Source: Octopus vulgaris (Eukaryota). From it: 64,000 nucleotides of DNA. The notes beneath the pieces were generated by a model, which did not search any database, was not told the origin of the DNA, and saw only the letters and a program-made list of their open reading frames with translations. Location: positions 39,122,001-39,186,000 of the forward strand of contig OX597840.1 of NCBI GenBank assembly GCA_951406725.2. Direction: 5' to 3'. Shown in pieces: positions 1,785-54,789 of the stretch (position 1 is the first letter of the stretch; each line of letters opens with the position of its first letter). A program made the position numbers and the translations under genes.

Positions 1785-1970
1785 GGGAGAGTTTACGAAG
1801 ACAGGTGGTGTACAAAACAAACAGATGTATTAGTATAACGTTCAGGAATAGAAAAAGTCTTTTACGTTTCGAACCTACGCTCTTCTACAGAAAGGGACAC
1901 AGAAAAAACAAGGAGAGAAACAAAGAGAGAAAAAAATGCGTGTAGTGCCTAACGATCTATCATGGCGTCT
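1785..1970 (-). mobile_element. PLE-type terminal-repeat remnant (family A) carrying a variant HHR motif at ~1858-1894
   Basis: Abuts (TA)n; same sequence recurs at 33088-33263 and 40295-40515; minus strand reads CTTT-CTGTAGA-A-GAGCGTAGGTTC-GAAACGTA-AAAG. Confidence 0.6.
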
Positions 1971-5677: not shown

Positions 5678-6143
5678 GTACCAGTTACGCACTGGGGTCG
5701 ATTTAATCGACTTAATCCGTTTGTCTGTCGTTGTTTGTCCTCTCTGTGTTTAGCCACTTGTGGGTAGTAAAGAAATAGGTATTTCGTCTGTCGTTACGTT
5801 CTGAGTTCAAATTCCGCCGAGGTCAACTTTTCCTTTCATCCTTTCGGGGTCGATTAAATAAGTACCAGTTACGCACTGGGGTCGATGTAATCGACTTAAT
5901 CCGTTTGTCTGTCGTTGTTTGTCCTCTCTGTGTTTAGCCACTTGTGGGTAGTAAAGAAATAGGTATTTCGTCTGCCGTTACGTTCTGAGTTCAAATTCCG
6001 CCGAGGTCGGCTTTGCCTTTCATCCTTTCGGGGTCGATTAAATAAGTACCAGTTACGCACAGGGGTTGATGTAATCGACTTAGTCCCTTTGTCTGCCCTT
6101 GTGTTTCCCCTCTATGTTTAGCCCCTTGTGGTCAATAAAGAAT
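5678..6143 (+). repeat. Tandem array (184-bp period, ~2.5 units) of a headless SINE body
   Basis: GTACCAGTTACGCAC at 5678, 5862 and 6046; the unit matches SINE copies at 23390-23570 and 55984-56220. Confidence 0.85.
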
Positions 6144-6754
6144 TAAACAGGCGGGAAATTATGGTTTTGCAACACGTGATAAACTCTTCTCATTGCCAGA
6201 GTGAAAGAAGGTGCAGAAAGTCTTCATTCTCTTAAATAATATCCGTCTCCTCTCTGCCCACTACCAAGGAGACTGGTATATCTTATATCACTTGAAGTTT
6301 TGCTGCAAGATAACTCGATGTGAACGTTCTTTCCGCAAATATATATATCCATGGATGCATTCGAACCACGACCACCGAATCACTTATTTCTATGATTTTT
6401 TTCATGTAATCAATGCATCGTTCTGGTCTGTTTTTTCTTTAAACGGTAATTTGTAATTTGCGTTGCGTATCTGTTTGCCCTTGGCTTATGTTCAACAATT
6501 CTCGACATATTCGTGATCAACAGAGACAACTAATATATGTAATAGAGCAAACTGCAATAAAGAGATTTTTTTTCTTCTATTTTATTTCTTTTAAATCTCG
6601 AAACAAACACCATTCGTTTTGTTGCGTATTTGAGTCTAGGTGTAATATCAGATTTATTTCACATGATTGCAATATTATCTCTGTACTTTGTTTCGTTTTT
6701 CTTTTTCCATTTCCATTTAAAGTTAACATATTGACTTGTTATATACGAAAATGC

Positions 6755-9959: not shown

Positions 9960-9994
<35 letters not shown>

Positions 9995-10204
9995 AAGACC
10001 ATGCTTAAATACATTTAGTTTTATATGTTCGTTCAGGCGTCTCTATGTCATGAAATCGAACTTACACATAGAGCTATACCCGAAGATCATATTCTGTAAA
10101 TTATCAATTTGCATTGAATATACTGGCTCGGCTGCACGCATTCCAGAAGATTTCCACAGTCTATAACAACACACACACACATATATGTACATACGTACAT
10201 ATAT

Positions 10205-10276
<72 letters not shown>

Positions 10277-10653
10277 CAACGCATGTATGTGAGTTGGACA
10301 AAGATGCACGCTTATAAAAACCTACATATATTTACAACATTTCATACGGTGTATGCAACGAACGATATTCCATTGTATAAATGAACTAAATCTTCGTAAA
10401 TGGCAAATTTAAACATCATGGACCATATATTTCGGTGGAATTGTTCAGCCATGAATATCCGCATTCCATCAATGCTGATGACAAATGGCTGCTTCCCCGT
10501 TTTGAAAACTTGCAAATCTTTAATTATATGACAATGAGAAATCGGAACAGTAGCTATACGACTTTCATAACGATTCCGTTTCATTCGTTAATACTCACTT
10601 CAGACATCTCGTATCATAGGAGCCATATGTGCAACAGAATATACATATATACA

Positions 10654-10706
<53 letters not shown>

Positions 10707-10740
10707 GAAAGAATGGAGTTGAACGACGAATTAACAAAAT

Positions 10741-10837
10741 TCCTTTATTTTCGACATATTATTCGAAGGCTGCATATTCCTAATTTCGAAGGAATAAGGG
10801 GTGCATTATGCCGCCTTCTCATCAGGAAAAATAAGGA
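10741..10837 (-). ncRNA. Type I hammerhead ribozyme motif with long stems I and II, in a (TA)n-flanked remnant
   Basis: Minus strand: TCCTTATTTTTC-CTGATGA-GAAGGC...GCCTTC-GAAT-AATATGTC-GAAAATAAAGGA; GAAA altered to GAAT. Confidence 0.7.
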
Positions 10838-10866
10838 ACTTATGCCAATATCAAGATGCACAAATA

Positions 10867-10935
<69 letters not shown>

Positions 10936-10939
<4 letters not shown>

Positions 10940-11197
10940 TACATTAAAACACAAGAGAATACTACCCTTTAACAGGTAATTTTTACATGCTAGAAGAAGC
11001 AGCCAAAACGGCCAAAACCAAAATTTGATAGCAATTTTCGAAGGAAATGAAAAATAAAAACTTTTACCTTGTTATATTTTTTTTTGCGGTTATACCTAGA
11101 TTTCAAATTTCTTTAGCAAATAAGATTATCTGCTTGGCGAATTCTCATCAGTAACCAGCCTCAATGTGTGCAACAGAATACACTCACACACACACAT

Positions 11198-11229
<32 letters not shown>

Positions 11230-11330
11230 GTAAGTATGTGTGTATATTCTGTTGCACCTTTGGTTGCTTCTTCTAGCATGAAAAAATTACCTGTTAAAGG
11301 GTAGTATTCTCTTGTGTTTAATTGTACATT
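10936..11330. mobile_element. PLE-type terminal repeat (10936-11182) with an inverted partial copy (11243-11330)
   Basis: AAACACAAGAGAATACTACCCTTT...CATGCTAGAAGAAGCAGCCAAA recurs in reverse complement; contains the 11088 HHR; (TA)n on the left. Confidence 0.6.
11088..11156 (-). ncRNA. Type I hammerhead ribozyme motif with intact core
   Basis: Minus strand: GGTTA-CTGATGA-GAATTC..AGCAGATAA-TC-TTATTTGCT..GAAATTT-GAAA-TCTAG-GTA-TAACC; perfect 5-bp stem I, near-palindromic stem III, GUA cleavage triplet. Confidence 0.8.
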
Positions 11331-11426
11331 ATTTTAAAATAAGAATATATTTCTATTGACTATTTATGCACGCTATACCAATGGTGTTGATATTTCTAAC
11401 GAATAATCACTACCCTGTATATATAT

Positions 11427-11469
<43 letters not shown>

Positions 11470-11651
11470 GAGTGTATTTTTACCTTGTTAACAACACGGA
11501 AAAAATAAATAAATAGTTATCAGGGCAGCAAAAATCTCACAAGTAAAGGTGTTATAACTCCTTGTTTATAAAGGTGGAAACTTCGTGTTTACGTTGAATC
11601 TTTTGAATAATATGAACAAAAAAATGGAGTTAACGCAGATGTAATCAAATA

Positions 11652-11748
11652 TTTTTACTTTCAACACATGTTTCGAAACTTCCACTGATACTATTCAAAA
11701 GAATAAATGGTATAAACAATGCAATCTTCTCCTCAGGAAAGTGAAAAA
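11652..11748 (-). ncRNA. Type I hammerhead ribozyme motif with extended stem II
   Basis: Minus strand: TTTTCACTTTC-CTGAGGA-GAAGATTGC...GGAAGTTTC-GAAACATGT-GTT-GAAAGTAAAAA; stem I ACTTTC/GAAAGT. Confidence 0.75.
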
Positions 11749-11751
11749 AAC

Positions 11752-11786
<35 letters not shown>

Positions 11787-11920
11787 TTATATATGTATGT
11801 ATATGTGTATGTGTGCATATTTTAAAAGAAAAAAATACATAGCTTGATATTTCTCAGTAACAATGTTTTCAACGAGGTTTTGTATGTATGTATGTATGTA
11901 TGTATGTGTGTGTGTGTGAG

Positions 11921-11997
<77 letters not shown>

Positions 11998-12008
11998 GTA
12001 TGCATATA

Positions 12009-12059
<51 letters not shown>

Positions 12060-12734
12060 ACATGTATATTGATGTATTTATAAATTGATTTACACGGTCG
12101 TATTTGTTATCATGTATTGGTACATTGTACCATTAGGAATATTTGATTTGACATCTGCGTAATACAATTAGTGATATTGTGTAATAGGCTTCATAACTCC
12201 CAATTGAACCAGCAGTCAGGTGCAATGTGTGAGGAACTACCTGTCGATTGATCGACAGAATATCAACAGGTGAAATTGCTAATCTCAAGAGAACGTAAAG
12301 AATTGAAGGTGGGTGTGTCATCTAGCTGTCAATCAGAAGAAAATAATAGTGCAATATCTTGAGTATAAATGCATTTCGGAATACTGGGATGTATAAGATA
12401 TGATTAAACTAAGCAACCTCGACCGCAAAGCCAAGTAGAACCAGATGTTAGCCAAATATTGTAGATATTTGGCGCCGTACAAACATCTAACCCTGGCAAA
12501 ACATATTCAAACACGGTCGGCGACAGTATACGAGAGAAAGTCGTTTATTATGAATTATCAATTTAGAGCAGGTATTAGTTTTTTTTTATCATTCAATTAA
12601 TCGTGATGAGAGAAAAGATGGGCAAAGGATAAAGAAAAAAGAGGAAAAGAAATAAAGAAAGAAACAAGTTAAGCGATGCAGAGGGAAAGAAAATAGGGAG
12701 ATAAAAGAATAAATAGATTGGGAAGAAAATGGAA

Positions 12735-12955
12735 TTTGGTAGACGGAAACTGAACGAAGTCAATTGTATGTGTGTATGTTTGTGTCTTTCTCTCTGTGTT
12801 TGTCCTCCACAACCGCTTGACAACTGGTATTGGTTAGTTTCCGTCCTCATAAATTAGCGGTTCGTTAAAGGAGCTCGTACAAGGTTTAAAAAGAAAATAA
12901 GTGCTGGAGTAGATTAGTATGGTACCTCAGTCGAATGACTGAAACAAGTAATCGG
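12735..12955 (+). mobile_element. Degenerate CORE-like SINE fragment
   Basis: GAATTTGGTAGACGGAAACTGAA...GAATGACTGAAACAAGTAA resembles the copies at 31361 and 59043. Confidence 0.65.
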
Positions 12956-13292: not shown

Positions 13293-13516
13293 GAAAAAAA
13301 ACAGTAGAAGCTCCGGAGAGGTATTTAGCCGTGATAAGTTCCATGGCTGAACACAGAGTTAGATCGATCAATAAAGATACAGATATGTATTACAAATATA
13401 GACACACGCGTCCACGGAAATGTGTGTGTGTGTGTGTACTCACATATGTATTTATGTATGTATATATGTATATATACAGAGGTATACATATGCATACGTA
13501 CATATATATATATATT

Positions 13517-13727
13517 CAAAATGTGACCGCGTGTTTACCGTTGGCGATTTTTTTCCTCTGTCTTCCCTTCTCTGGATCTTTCCTTCTCCTATGTTTCCGA
13601 CGAAGAGCTCCGCTCGAAGCGTTAGACCCTCATTCTTCCCTTCTTTCCTGAGCGTCTAATAATACTATATTCGTTCCACGTCCTCGCGTTGTTGTGTTTT
13701 TTTTGTGCTTTCTTGTTTGGATTCACT
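13517..13727 (+). mobile_element. PLE-type terminal-repeat remnant (family B) with minimal HHR motif at ~13593-13627
   Basis: Flanked by (TA)n; GTTT-CCGACGA-A-GAGC-TCC-GCTC-GAAGCGTT; copies at 25856, 36130 and 53641. Confidence 0.65.
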
Positions 13728-17314: not shown

Positions 17315-17365
<51 letters not shown>

Positions 17366-17620
17366 CAGAGAAACATATATAGGGTCAACAAAAATGTACT
17401 CCATCCAGTAAGATATAAATATCATTTAATATATAGCATTAAAAACACTACTTATAGTTCCATGCTTTAAGAGACACTAAATTGGCAGATTTACAGGATA
17501 TGCCTTGTATATCCAGGCAATCTTTCATGCTCAATTCATAACAGTAGATGTAGATATACACCAGGACATTGGTCTATGAGAAAACATAAAAAAGTTGGGA
17601 AAAAATGCGATAAAACACAT

Positions 17621-18191: not shown

Positions 18192-18456
18192 ATAGAATGG
18201 TTGTATACTGTCAACTTAACGTGACAGTAAGGGAATTACACCACCGTTGTTTAACCCTAGGAAGCATCGACGCTTCCTGTCGGCCTCGACACATTTCCTG
18301 TGTCCTTATATATTTGCGATGGGGAGATAAATAAATATATAAGGACAAAGGGAATGTGTCAAGGCCGACAGGAAGCGTCGATGCTTCCTCGGGTTAAACA
18401 GCGGTGGTGTAATTCCCTTACTGTCACGTTAAGTTGACAGTATAGAACCACTCTAT
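18192..18456. repeat. Fold-back inverted repeat, 124-bp arms, 17-nt loop
   Basis: 18192-18315 is the reverse complement of 18333-18456 with a few mismatches. Confidence 0.9.
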
Positions 18457-18778: not shown

Positions 18779-20619
18779 GCATTTGACAACAAAACGAATA
18801 TAGTGTTATGTATTCAACCGACAAAGCTGCATATCACTAAAGCTGTTCACAATGCAATCGAAAAATTGCATAAAACTTGAATACACGAGGAAAATATACC
18901 AACAATTTCAACATATTAGATTACAGAATGGTATGTTTTTATTGAATTAAGCCATTTGAAATTTTCGCTTTTACTTGTAGGTTTCCATTTTATTCCAATT
19001 AACACATTTATGTATAATTCCATTTCACATGAGTAATTTCACATGTTACTAATATTAGTCATCGGAAAAATATTTAGCATCATGTTCTAAGATGGATATA
19101 ACTGACTAACAGTCTCCCCTAAAATTGCTGGCCTTGTGCCAAAATTTGAAACCAAATTTATTAACATTAGATAAGGTGATGAGCTGGCAGAGATTATAGC
19201 ACACTAGACAGAAAGTGTTAGCGGTACTTTTATTTTTGCGTTCCGATTTCGAAACCAGCAGACTTTACTTGTCATTTTTGGGGGTTTGGCAAAATAAGGG
19301 CCTGTTGAGAACTAAGGTTGATGAAATTGATTCACTGCCCCTCTTCCTCAAAGCTGCTATCTTCGAGCCAAAGGTTTAATCCGATTTTAGATAAATCTAT
19401 TCTCACATCACCAGACTTACACATACCAAGAAAAGAAAAATATATTATCACTAGTGAGGATTCAAACCAGGATATTAATGAGGTACAGAGTACTCTTCTC
19501 TGTAACGGCTTCTGACAAATCTTTTCCGTCTATGTGGGTGCTTTACCCGAATTTCCAAAGCTGTTTTTCACGGCTATTACCTTGCGTTCGAAGTTACTTT
19601 CATTTCTAAAAATATAAGAAACATATTAATACATACAAGCATATGTAATGATAATAATAAGTGGATGTAAACACATGAACAAAATAAGAATAAACAAAAA
19701 CAACAACAAAAACAAATTACATGAACGTATATAAACAGAAGATACAAATATTACAGGCATCCCCCCACACACACACTAAATAAACATAGACGCACATAGA
19801 GATATAAGCATGCGCAAATGAAGACATACAATAGAAATACAAAATGACTGACGGTTAGTAAGGAGAGACACAGATAAGAAAGAAGAAAACAAAGGACCAC
19901 TGATGCGGTCACAGGAGTGTGACGAAAGAACTCTGTCCGAAATAAGATTAAGATTAATGTAAAAAATAAATAACACTGAAGCAAAGTAACACCAAATATA
20001 TAGTGCGTGTGTTTTTATTGGCTAAACTGGCAAAATGACCATTCCGAAATACAAAAATATTATTGAGTTCAAGTTCTGCGGATTGTTCTTTATTTCCAAC
20101 TGAACAAGGAAAGATTTAGTGACACAAATATTACTGATACTTGTTCAAATATATTTACCAACACAAGTCACATCGCATTTATCATACAGCATACTACCAA
20201 AACAATAAGTAACCACAAAACGAGAATACTGCGACAGCTGCCCGCAAGTAAAAGAGATCTGTGGGAGGATAAACAAGCTAAAATGGCCTCTCCAGGATAT
20301 AAAGTTATATATAACGTTAATAGTGTTACGAGAAACTGAATATACCAAATGTTTCAATGATAAATATGACATATAAAATGTCACTATAATTCAATTATAT
20401 TAATTCCAACACATGCGCCAAGTTGGAATGAAGAAAGAAATAAAACTAACAACATCATTAATATGTTTAACTGTCTAACACAACATAACATGTGTTAATG
20501 TCAGGTGAAATTGTTGTTATTTGCAGAGTATTTAGATATTTGTGTTTTGAATTTTTCTGTCGTGGAAGTTAATTTATAAACTTCTGCTGCATCATGGAAC
20601 AATTCAAGTTTTTCAAAGG

Positions 20620-25818: not shown

Positions 25819-26153
<335 letters not shown>

Positions 26154-43815: not shown

Positions 43816-44504
43816 CTAGCAGTATCGCCCGCCGTTGCTCGTGTTTGTAAGGGAAATAACTATATAGGCATTTTTAGAGAGTTATAGCCAAAAAATATCA
43901 AAAAATGCATTAAAAATGGAAAACAAATTAGGGTAATTTATTTTTTAAATCGTTGACTCATCGTAGACATTTTTAGAGAGTTACTTCCCTTATATAATAG
44001 CGAAAAAAATGCATTAAAATGGAAAAAATGATGGTAATTTTTTTTTAAATCGTTGACTAATCGTAGACATTTTTAGAGTTACTTCCCTTATATAATAGCG
44101 AAAAAAATGCATTAAAATGGAAAAAATGATGGTAATTTTTTTTTAAATCGTTGACTAATCGTAGACATTTTTAGAGTTACTTCCCTTATATAATAGCGAA
44201 AAAATGCATTAAAATGGAAAAAATGATGGTAATTTTTTTTAAATCGTTGACTAATCGTAGACATTTTTAGAGAGTTACTTCCCTTATATAATAGCAAAAA
44301 AATGCATTAAAATAGAAAAAATGATGGCATTTTTTTTTTTAATCGTAGACTCATCGTAGACGCGCGCTAATACCCAGAAGGGCTCGATATGAATCACGAC
44401 TATAAGATACCCGGTTTTGGTTAAACTGCACCGCAAAATGTGGGAGTAGTTAGGAATCTAAATCGTAGGAGACAGACACACAACTTGACTTTTATATATA
44501 AAGA
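43816..44504 (-). mobile_element. Non-autonomous Helitron with an expanded internal ~88-bp tandem repeat
   Basis: Same termini as 22391 (TC...CTAG, A|T target); unit AATGCATTAAAATGGAAAAAATGATGG...CCCTTATATAATAGCG repeated ~4.5 times over 43901-44360. Confidence 0.9.
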
Positions 44505-53560: not shown

Positions 53561-53639
<79 letters not shown>

Positions 53640-53640
53640 T

Positions 53641-53831
53641 CAAAATGTGGCGATTTTTTTCCTCCGTCTTCCCTTCTCTGAATCTTTCCTTTTCCTATGT
53701 TTCTGACGAAGACCTCCGCTCGAAACGTTAATCTCTCCTTCTTTCCTTCTCTCCTTAGCGTCCAATAATACTATATTTGTTCCACGTCCTCACGTTGCTG
53801 TGTTTCCTCTTTGTGTTTTCATGTTTGGATC

Positions 53832-53835
<4 letters not shown>
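53641..53835 (+). mobile_element. PLE-type remnant family B with HHR at ~53699-53733 (canonical CUGACGA)
   Basis: GTTT-CTGACGA-A-GACCTCCGCTC-GAAACGTT-AATC; (TA)n on both sides. Confidence 0.7.
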
Positions 53836-54612: not shown

Positions 54613-54738
54613 TAGATATATATGTATATATATATATAAAAGACTTGTTTTATTTATATTCTTGAGCGCCATACTAATACAATTGTTTGTTTATATTCCA
54701 CCTGCCTTCGTCTTTTGTTTATTTTCATAAAGCTTCCC

Positions 54739-54789
<51 letters not shown>

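Follow-up and report, generated by a model that had tools for sequence, protein, structure and literature searches.

Type I hammerhead motifs in a (TA)n-rich octopus locus, probable stubs of Penelope-like terminal repeats

Hammerhead motifs and the units that carry them

The window, meaning the whole 64-kb stretch of Octopus vulgaris DNA that was analysed, is AT-rich (G+C 0.22-0.37) and crowded with microsatellites, with 166 tandem-repeat rows and not one tRNA gene. We take its dispersed repeats to resemble octopus SINEs. A near-perfect inverted repeat of MITE-like aspect, with arms of roughly 115 bp, lies at 18200-18450, and two tandem arrays are built of units that are also dispersed in the window, one at 5678-6145 (184-bp unit, 2.5 copies), the other at 43865-44361 (98-bp unit, 4.7 copies). 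The features of main concern here are three type I hammerhead motifs, H1 to H3, which lie close together:

11652-11747, minus strand: H1 type I hammerhead, with CUGAGGA, a 55-nt stem II, GAAA, an 8-nt self-complementary stem III and GUU
11087-11157, minus strand: H2 type I hammerhead, with CUGAUGA, a 40-nt stem II, GAAA, an 8-nt stem III and GUA
10739-10839, minus strand: H3 type I hammerhead, with CUGAUGA, a 54-nt stem II, GAAU, GUC and an extended stem I

A type I hammerhead descriptor was run over both strands of the 64-kb window under strict rules and under rules relaxed at A15.1, with 100 block-wise dinucleotide shuffles of the window as the null model. H1 and H2 are strict matches, and H3 matches under the relaxed rules only; since the shuffles yield on average 0.0 strict and 0.02 relaxed matches, the three motifs stand above chance. 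The descriptor recovers the minus-strand trio reported in the first-pass annotation at the same positions, and at a frequency that dinucleotide-shuffled sequence does not equal. Judged by their sequence, all three are genuine type I hammerheads, each with a predicted cleavage site. Hammerheads are missing from the 64 Rfam matches at E<=10 in 10280-11760, and from the 150 of 367 rows listed for the whole window, for which the long stem II may be responsible.

H1 and H2 have the complete set of CUGANGA and GAAA core, A15.1-U16.1 and NUH triplet; H3 fails it through U15.1, having lost A15.1 and left 15.2 unpaired, and its fold z is -3.7. Position C3 is at 11736 in H1, 11151 in H2 and 10825 in H3, and cleavage is predicted after GUU at 11663/11662, after GUA at 11093/11092 and after GUC at 10753/10752, respectively. 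Each motif has three stems with stem I open; contiguous pairs number 6, 6 and 5 in stem I and 4, 5 and 6 in stem II of H1, H2 and H3, and stem III pairs only as a palindrome. The pair at 10.1-11.1 is G-C in H1 and H3, and G-U in the H2 copy. The stem III sequence is ACAUGUGU for H1 and AUCUAGGU for H2, each self-complementary at 8 of 8 positions with G-U allowed, whereas UAAUAUGU of H3 is self-complementary at only 4 of 8. The near-palindromic stem III first ascribed to all three motifs thus holds in full for H1 and H2, and for H3 at half of the positions.

The motifs sit in separate units, and a fourth unit adjoins them:

11463-11752, minus strand: H1 unit, a 290-bp stub of a high-copy family, covered in 4 of 4 sequencing runs
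11429-11462, no strand: (TA)n run bounding the H1 unit on its 3' side, from the repeat listing
11259-11356, plus strand: inverted, 5'-truncated second copy of the H2-family 3' end (repeat 11259-11328 and its extension)
11168-11257, no strand: junction palindrome of the head-to-head pair, self-complementary at 68 of 90 positions, ungapped
10937-11180, minus strand: H2 unit, 244 bp
10864-10936, no strand: (TA)n run separating the H2 unit from the H3 unit, from the repeat listing
10704-10864, minus strand: H3 unit of 161 bp, whose end, 49 nt beyond the cut, abuts a (TA)n run
10280-10640, minus strand: fourth unit, with a 17-nt 5' terminus in common with the H2 unit

The H1 unit stops 16 nt upstream of C3 and extends 200 nt beyond the cut to its (TA)n run. 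Each of the three hammerhead units ends at such a run, in keeping with the (TA)n boundaries noted at first. About 20 nt at 12138-12160 (plus strand) resemble, by eye, the 3' flank of H1 on the opposite strand (11627-11651). The fourth unit contains a CUGA..GAAAC..GUU remnant near 10603-10570 (fold z +0.6), which fails three hammerhead descriptors and is possibly a decayed hammerhead; for its 80- and 84-codon frames, on opposite strands, no homologue was found.

The H2 unit is one half of a head-to-head pair. Its last 70 bp (10938-11007) recur inverted at 11259-11328 with 94% identity, and the inverted arm extends one-sidedly beyond 11328 by about 28 bp, a possible PLE 'tail'. Between the two copies, the junction palindrome consists of a (CA)n(TA)n(TG)n hairpin with a 13-14-bp terminus flanking each side, and its 90 bp are predicted to fold into helices of 16, 7 and 18 bp. 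For Penelope-like retroelements (PLEs), published descriptions include head-to-head inverted pLTRs with a junction palindrome and a tail of 31 bp on one side (PMC3846280; PMC8557442), and the inversion and palindrome around H2 match this PLE signature.

In a Pfam search, the six frames of 9990-12770 gave 0 families, hence neither RT nor GIY-YIG, and the 150 longest of the 222 unmasked open frames of the window gave none above the cut-off; the linked RT or GIY-YIG frames that the first-pass annotation proposed to look for are absent from that interval and from those 150 frames. Two putative GIY-YIG remnants picked out by eye, at 17360-17600 and 20067-20336, were dropped, as no Pfam family matches them; at 17360-17600 (plus strand), ETYIGST follows a (TA)n run, which we take to resemble the second half of the GIY-YIG motif. 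Exact-pattern scans of metagenome contigs, viral contigs and prokaryote genomes produced no match, and a search of public runs listed no RNA data set with the locus and no run with half of the query words.

Lineages, families and dispersed stubs

The three hammerheads had been called unrelated, with no flanking sequence in common, and this proved too strong. H1 and H3 align at 25 of 36 columns of the 3' flank beyond stem I and at 34 of 57 columns of stem II, in each case with 0 of 2000 shuffles as high, and BLAST gives 73% over 60 nt. H2 alone is unrelated, its similarity to H1 or H3 being at chance level (253-1107 of 2000 shuffles as high). Between H1 and H3, 2 of 11 core-proximal pairs differ on both sides, a count that comes from two rows only and, with 130 of 500 shuffles as high, is not significant alone; a third pair changes on both sides if H1 takes its family-majority letter. 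On this sequence evidence, H1 and H3 are best read as sister families rather than as a recent local duplicate. Instead of the three independent families first proposed, there would be two lineages, one with H1 and H3 as distant relatives outside the core, and one with H2. A 13-nt stretch common to the H1 and H2 units (11478-11490 and 11062-11074) was set aside, being absent from the loose-end consensus of the H1 family.

Contigs of four public runs (X21, X1, X2 and X15) were aligned to 10937-11752 at 80% likeness, giving 1490, 204, 160 and 50 contig records across the four. The alignment takes in the H1 and H2 units, with H3 and the fourth unit lying outside. It skips repeats, leaves microsatellites uncovered and has no listed piece spanning the stretch, and is therefore uninformative on units travelling together. 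That X2 and X15 consist of RNA is a guess, and coverage in these two runs cannot be taken as a sign of expression. Both families are multi-copy in 4 of 4 runs, as had been expected of them. Summed contig depth over 11497-11748 in X21 is 18,000-75,000 (6-21 for single listed contigs), a figure distinct from copy number, and the H1 family is plainly abundant.

The window copies deviate from their family majorities towards weaker ribozymes. At 11663, 96-99% of H1 depth in 4 of 4 runs has C17, hence GUC, where the window copy has GUU; at 11679, about 100% of depth in each of the four runs carries a letter that gives stem II back an A-U pair. C15.2 makes up 70-76% of H2-family depth in three runs and yields a perfect palindrome, the window copy having U15.2, and a change at 11135 (64-100% of depth) gains one stem II pair. 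With the majority letters, GUC, C15.2-G16.2 and two pairs of stem II are regained, so the window copies of H1 and H2 have drifted. GUC and GUA are reported as the fastest cleavage triplets, with GUU cleavable (PMC3138052), and changes at 15.1/16.1 are reported to lower hammerhead activity at least tenfold (PMC3088659).

Covariation points to a dimer. In the H2 family, 11097 and 11098 change jointly, turning CUAG into CAUG with the palindrome kept; this accounts for 21-25% of depth in X21, X1 and X2 (10-11, 3 and 1 contigs) and appears in one X15 contig. These bases cannot pair in the monomer loop and do pair in the dimer, which makes the double change dimer covariation. It bears out the dimer-type palindromic stem III first proposed and, together with the majority letters that restore pairs, the stem covariation looked for among genomic copies. 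As a counter-example, one deep X15 contig turns G10.1-C11.1 of H1 into G-U; stem variants were judged from the 40 rows listed, with 18 more beyond them.

Most copies of the H2 family break off about 15 nt 3' of the cut, at an (AT)n run in the vicinity of 11077. Depth in X21 is 24,744 over 11049-11076 against 1,283 over 11077-11104, and (AT)n loose ends occur in 5 contigs. The listed contig pieces 4-6, 19 and 27-30 bridge 11077, and ribozyme-bearing copies are the minority. This stop fits either 5' ends set by the ribozyme or microhomology with the target. Past 11356, where the extension of the inverted arm ends, depth falls from 1860 to 179 in X21, from 39 to 7.5 in X1, from 131 to 79 in X2 and from 66 to 61 in X15, a step evident in two of the four runs (the PLE tail, which is optional, has 30-40 bp).

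A broader descriptor allowing up to 2 defects also admits loop-less minimal hammerheads, which lie outside the reach of the strict and relaxed rules. It finds 7 motifs in the window against a shuffle mean of 0.075 (40 shuffles), namely H1-H3 and four minimal hammerheads elsewhere, two of these on the plus strand. The four are loop-less, with a 4-nt stem III and a bulged base like that described in PMC4209133. They are members of two dispersed families that together comprise 8 stubs, with 95.7% of 70 cells paired:

13516-13726 (plus), 25857-26052 (minus), 53637-53834 (plus) and 36133-36230 (plus): minimal-hammerhead family 1, stubs of about 200 bp
1785-1970 (minus), 40298-40515 (minus), 33089-33262 (plus) and 54637-54740 (plus): minimal-hammerhead family 2

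Family 1 has a bulged A, a 4-bp stem II and an ACGU stem III; each of its stubs ends at (TA)n, and 3 of the 4 match the descriptor with 1-2 defects. Family 2 resembles it in the 3' part, and the outer pair of stem I covaries between the two (G-C/C-G). The stub at 54637-54740 follows a (TA)n run, and its start coincides exactly with the cleavage site predicted for the hammerhead of its family, a single case that may represent either a ribozyme-set 5' end or TA microhomology.

The window thus holds 11 stubs, 6 minus and 5 plus. All 11 have (TA)n at their 3' end, compared with 8.6% of background positions lying within 15 nt of such a run, the ends of the H1-H3 units having been read partly off the (TA)n runs themselves. 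This is in line with the original suggestion that insertions pile into (TA)n targets. The shared orientation of H1-H3, to which significance had also been given, is weak evidence, because the eight further stubs lie on both strands; three on one strand has p=0.25.

Origin of the cluster

The units are best read, with a probability of roughly 0.72, as decayed, 5'-truncated PLE terminal-repeat stubs (pLTR and tail) of two lineages, piled into adjacent (TA)n runs. Their donors would be endonuclease-bearing PLEs or non-autonomous derivatives of these, the PLE enzyme being our inference. Because no RT or endonuclease frame is linked to the units, their membership is argued from structure, and the dimer-type stem III, the inverted copy and the (TA)n flanks fit the PLE/retrozyme class to which they were first assigned. 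According to this model, a PLE RT-endonuclease would nick a (TA)n tract and, 50-200 nt downstream of the hammerhead, prime reverse transcription, which would halt soon afterwards and leave a stub of 160-290 bp. At H2, the insertion would additionally have folded back, giving the head-to-head inverted copy. We propose that stubs pile up because each insertion leaves fresh (TA)n flanks and because PLEs favour sites beside earlier copies, the order of the insertion events being a matter of reconstruction. The 3' ends of the H1-H3 units, 49-200 nt past the cut, fit the initiation distance of the anole PLE, for which RT initiation about 90 nt past the cut and nicking of AT-rich DNA, including its own pLTR, are reported (PMC11167929). 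Against the PLE reading, a 40-55-nt stem II and an 8-nt stem III are unlike the published metazoan PLE minimal hammerheads.

In a close alternative, if an unlikely one, only the donor differs: non-LTR retrozyme families would be transcribed from tandem arrays elsewhere and cut by their hammerheads into 170-400-nt monomers, which would be circularised and re-inserted into (TA)n by PLE enzymes as solo monomers. The unit sizes of 161-290 bp are near that 170-400-nt range (PMC7229834), the H1 family retains the whole ribozyme at high depth, and no coding frame is linked. Retrozymes are, moreover, said to derive from pLTRs, and monomer derivatives related to pLTRs to spread over chromosomes (Li et al., 2026, preprint 10.64898/2026.07.22.740005). 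What tells against retrozymes is that no unit is tandemly repeated at the locus, that 0 of 9 listed contig joints closes an end-to-start loop, and that H2 sits in a head-to-head inversion of the kind left by PLE insertion.

It is very unlikely that PLE-derived stubs simply met by chance, free of any targeting, in a stub- and (TA)n-rich genome. Three tracts drawn at random from the window's 78 (TA)n tracts lie within 1.1 kb of each other with p=0.0027, but this statistic is weakened by the minimal hammerheads that the broader descriptor adds: with 7, 10 or 11 stubs, any triple within 1.1 kb has p=0.08, 0.22 or 0.29, and a same-strand triple p=0.02, 0.07 or 0.09. With at least 11 hammerhead-family stubs in 64 kb, a 2-kb bin richer in (TA)n tracts (7) than any other in the window, and a window chosen from a very large scan, a chance meeting gains some ground. 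Against it stand the remaining oddity that the clustered three are exactly the long-stem-II motifs of the window, two of them related, and the fourth unit with its H2 terminus next to them. At p of about 0.003 if (TA)n tracts were chosen at random, long-stem-II clustering needs either cross-family targeting or selection of a rare window. PLEs reportedly tend to insert into or beside earlier copies (PMC6765202), and this habit or window selection can each account for it.

A single composite would have a read-through RNA cut at H1, H2 and H3 into chimeric pieces of 570 and 340 nt that are co-mobilised, or the intact core of H1 cutting the GUC of H3 in a hetero-double hammerhead, so that the array processes RNA; in its favour are the position of all three motifs on one strand within 1.1 kb and the p=0.0027 for three random picks. 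A double hammerhead requires cross-pairing in stems I and III, and between the H1 core and the GUC strand of H3, 6 pairs in stem III and 4 in stem I are possible. In a modelled 1049-nt read-through RNA, however, the H1/H3 hybrid lies +25 kcal/mol above the free ensemble and the full double form +30, on which account the H1/H3 hetero-dimer is disfavoured, and monomer-competent folds take up ensemble shares of 2e-11, 2e-5 and 0.018; these energies come from an equilibrium model that ignores co-transcriptional folding and proteins. H2 has no stem I or III cross-pairing to H1 or H3, ribozyme-bin depth differs about 20- to 200-fold between H1 and H2 in one run, and the same-strand triple rises to p=0.02-0.09 with 7-11 stubs per window. 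Each copy, furthermore, carries lost or weakened core positions. A composite is accordingly hard to credit, and the first-pass proposal of a working array, able to cut minus-strand transcripts into defined pieces, finds no footing in copies weaker than their family majority, an H3 without A15.1, an unpairable H2 and so costly a hybrid. The cluster is probably not a working ribozyme array. No host gene, minus-strand transcript or RNA circle turned up over the locus, which speaks neither for nor against them. PLE hammerheads are reported to be weak in vitro, dimers included (PMC4209133), and that of the anole to require its protein (PMC11167929). On the preferred reading, that of PLE stubs, the parent element's ribozyme would cut tandem precursor RNA as a homodimer through the palindromic stem III, and the window stubs, being solo, partnerless and neutrally decaying, would probably cut little or nothing.

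Contigs that run past the 5' end of H1 (11749-11751; 2-3 per run, in runs X1 and X2) carry a segment complementary to the GAAAC..GUC strand of H1, which on the plus strand presents a GAAAC-UC-GUC half core and then AAUAAA. The duplex has -10.8 kcal/mol, with 40 of 5000 shuffles as good for a segment that was chosen by eye. It is quite unlikely that H1/H3 and H2 form a distinct class of animal retroelement hammerheads marked by the 40-55-nt stem II, with a full-length H1 bearing this upstream anti-core segment. If so, the segment might either serve the element as its own off switch or make up one half of a further hammerhead on the opposite strand, of the kind found in viroid-like circular RNAs, and such elements may also home to one another's flanks across families. 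As PLE stubs, the units add new PLE-type hammerhead families from the octopus genome; their natural covariation speaks for dimer folding, and they show clearly how stubs accumulate in microsatellites, which is useful for repeat annotation and unsurprising. They would carry greater weight if the long stem II or the anti-core segment regulated cleavage, or if cross-family homing were shown genome-wide; regulation would matter since the role of hammerheads in PLEs is described as still open (PMC8557442).

Comparison with known systems

A stem II of 40-55 nt is unusual, and may be published already. A literature search for octopus hammerhead families listed no paper on them, and the supplements of PMC4209133 and PMC8557442 may list such motifs. 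The nearest counterparts are the pLTR hammerheads of metazoan PLEs, in Drosophila, rotifers, shrimp and mosquito (Cervera and De la Pena, 2014, PMC4209133). These are type I as well, include variants whose small palindromic helix III suits a dimer, and are mostly solo and dispersed, from truncated elements, with several consensus families per genome; they also share G10.1-C11.1 with H1 and H3. Unlike the minimal hammerheads of that account, H1-H3 have a hairpin of 40-55 nt in place of a 6-8-bp stem II, an 8-nt stem III and no bulged base before stem II, and no PLE coding frame is linked to them at the locus. The metazoan minimal form is characterised by that bulge, a stem II of 7-8 bp and a missing loop III.

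Non-LTR retrozymes (Cervera and De la Pena, 2020, PMC7229834; Li et al., 2026), as far as those accounts go, are likewise non-coding units of a few hundred bases with low G+C, a type I hammerhead and a probable dependence on PLEs; unlike them, the octopus units form no tandem of like units at the locus and are known from contigs, which carry no information on strand, RNA ends or circles. Neptune-type PLEs (Craig et al., 2021, PMC8557442) are defined as a clade by their RT and CX2-5CxxC linker, so that the comparison with the octopus units is one of hammerhead, flanks and copy structure. Both have a canonical hammerhead, (TA)n flanks that hide target duplications and an inverted 5'-truncated copy; Neptune-type elements have a one-sided tail, to which the extension of about 28 bp at H2 may correspond. 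Naiads, in the same source, share the (TA)n bias and are described as being without canonical hammerheads, unlike H1 and H2 with their full cores and stems. The Poseidon element (Anolis carolinensis; Frangieh et al., 2024, PMC11167929) has an ORF that begins within the ribozyme, and its protein has been assayed, whereas the octopus locus has no recognisable frame. Like the octopus units, Poseidon inserts into AT-rich targets with 3' ends shortly downstream of its hammerhead, and its ribozyme is weak on its own.
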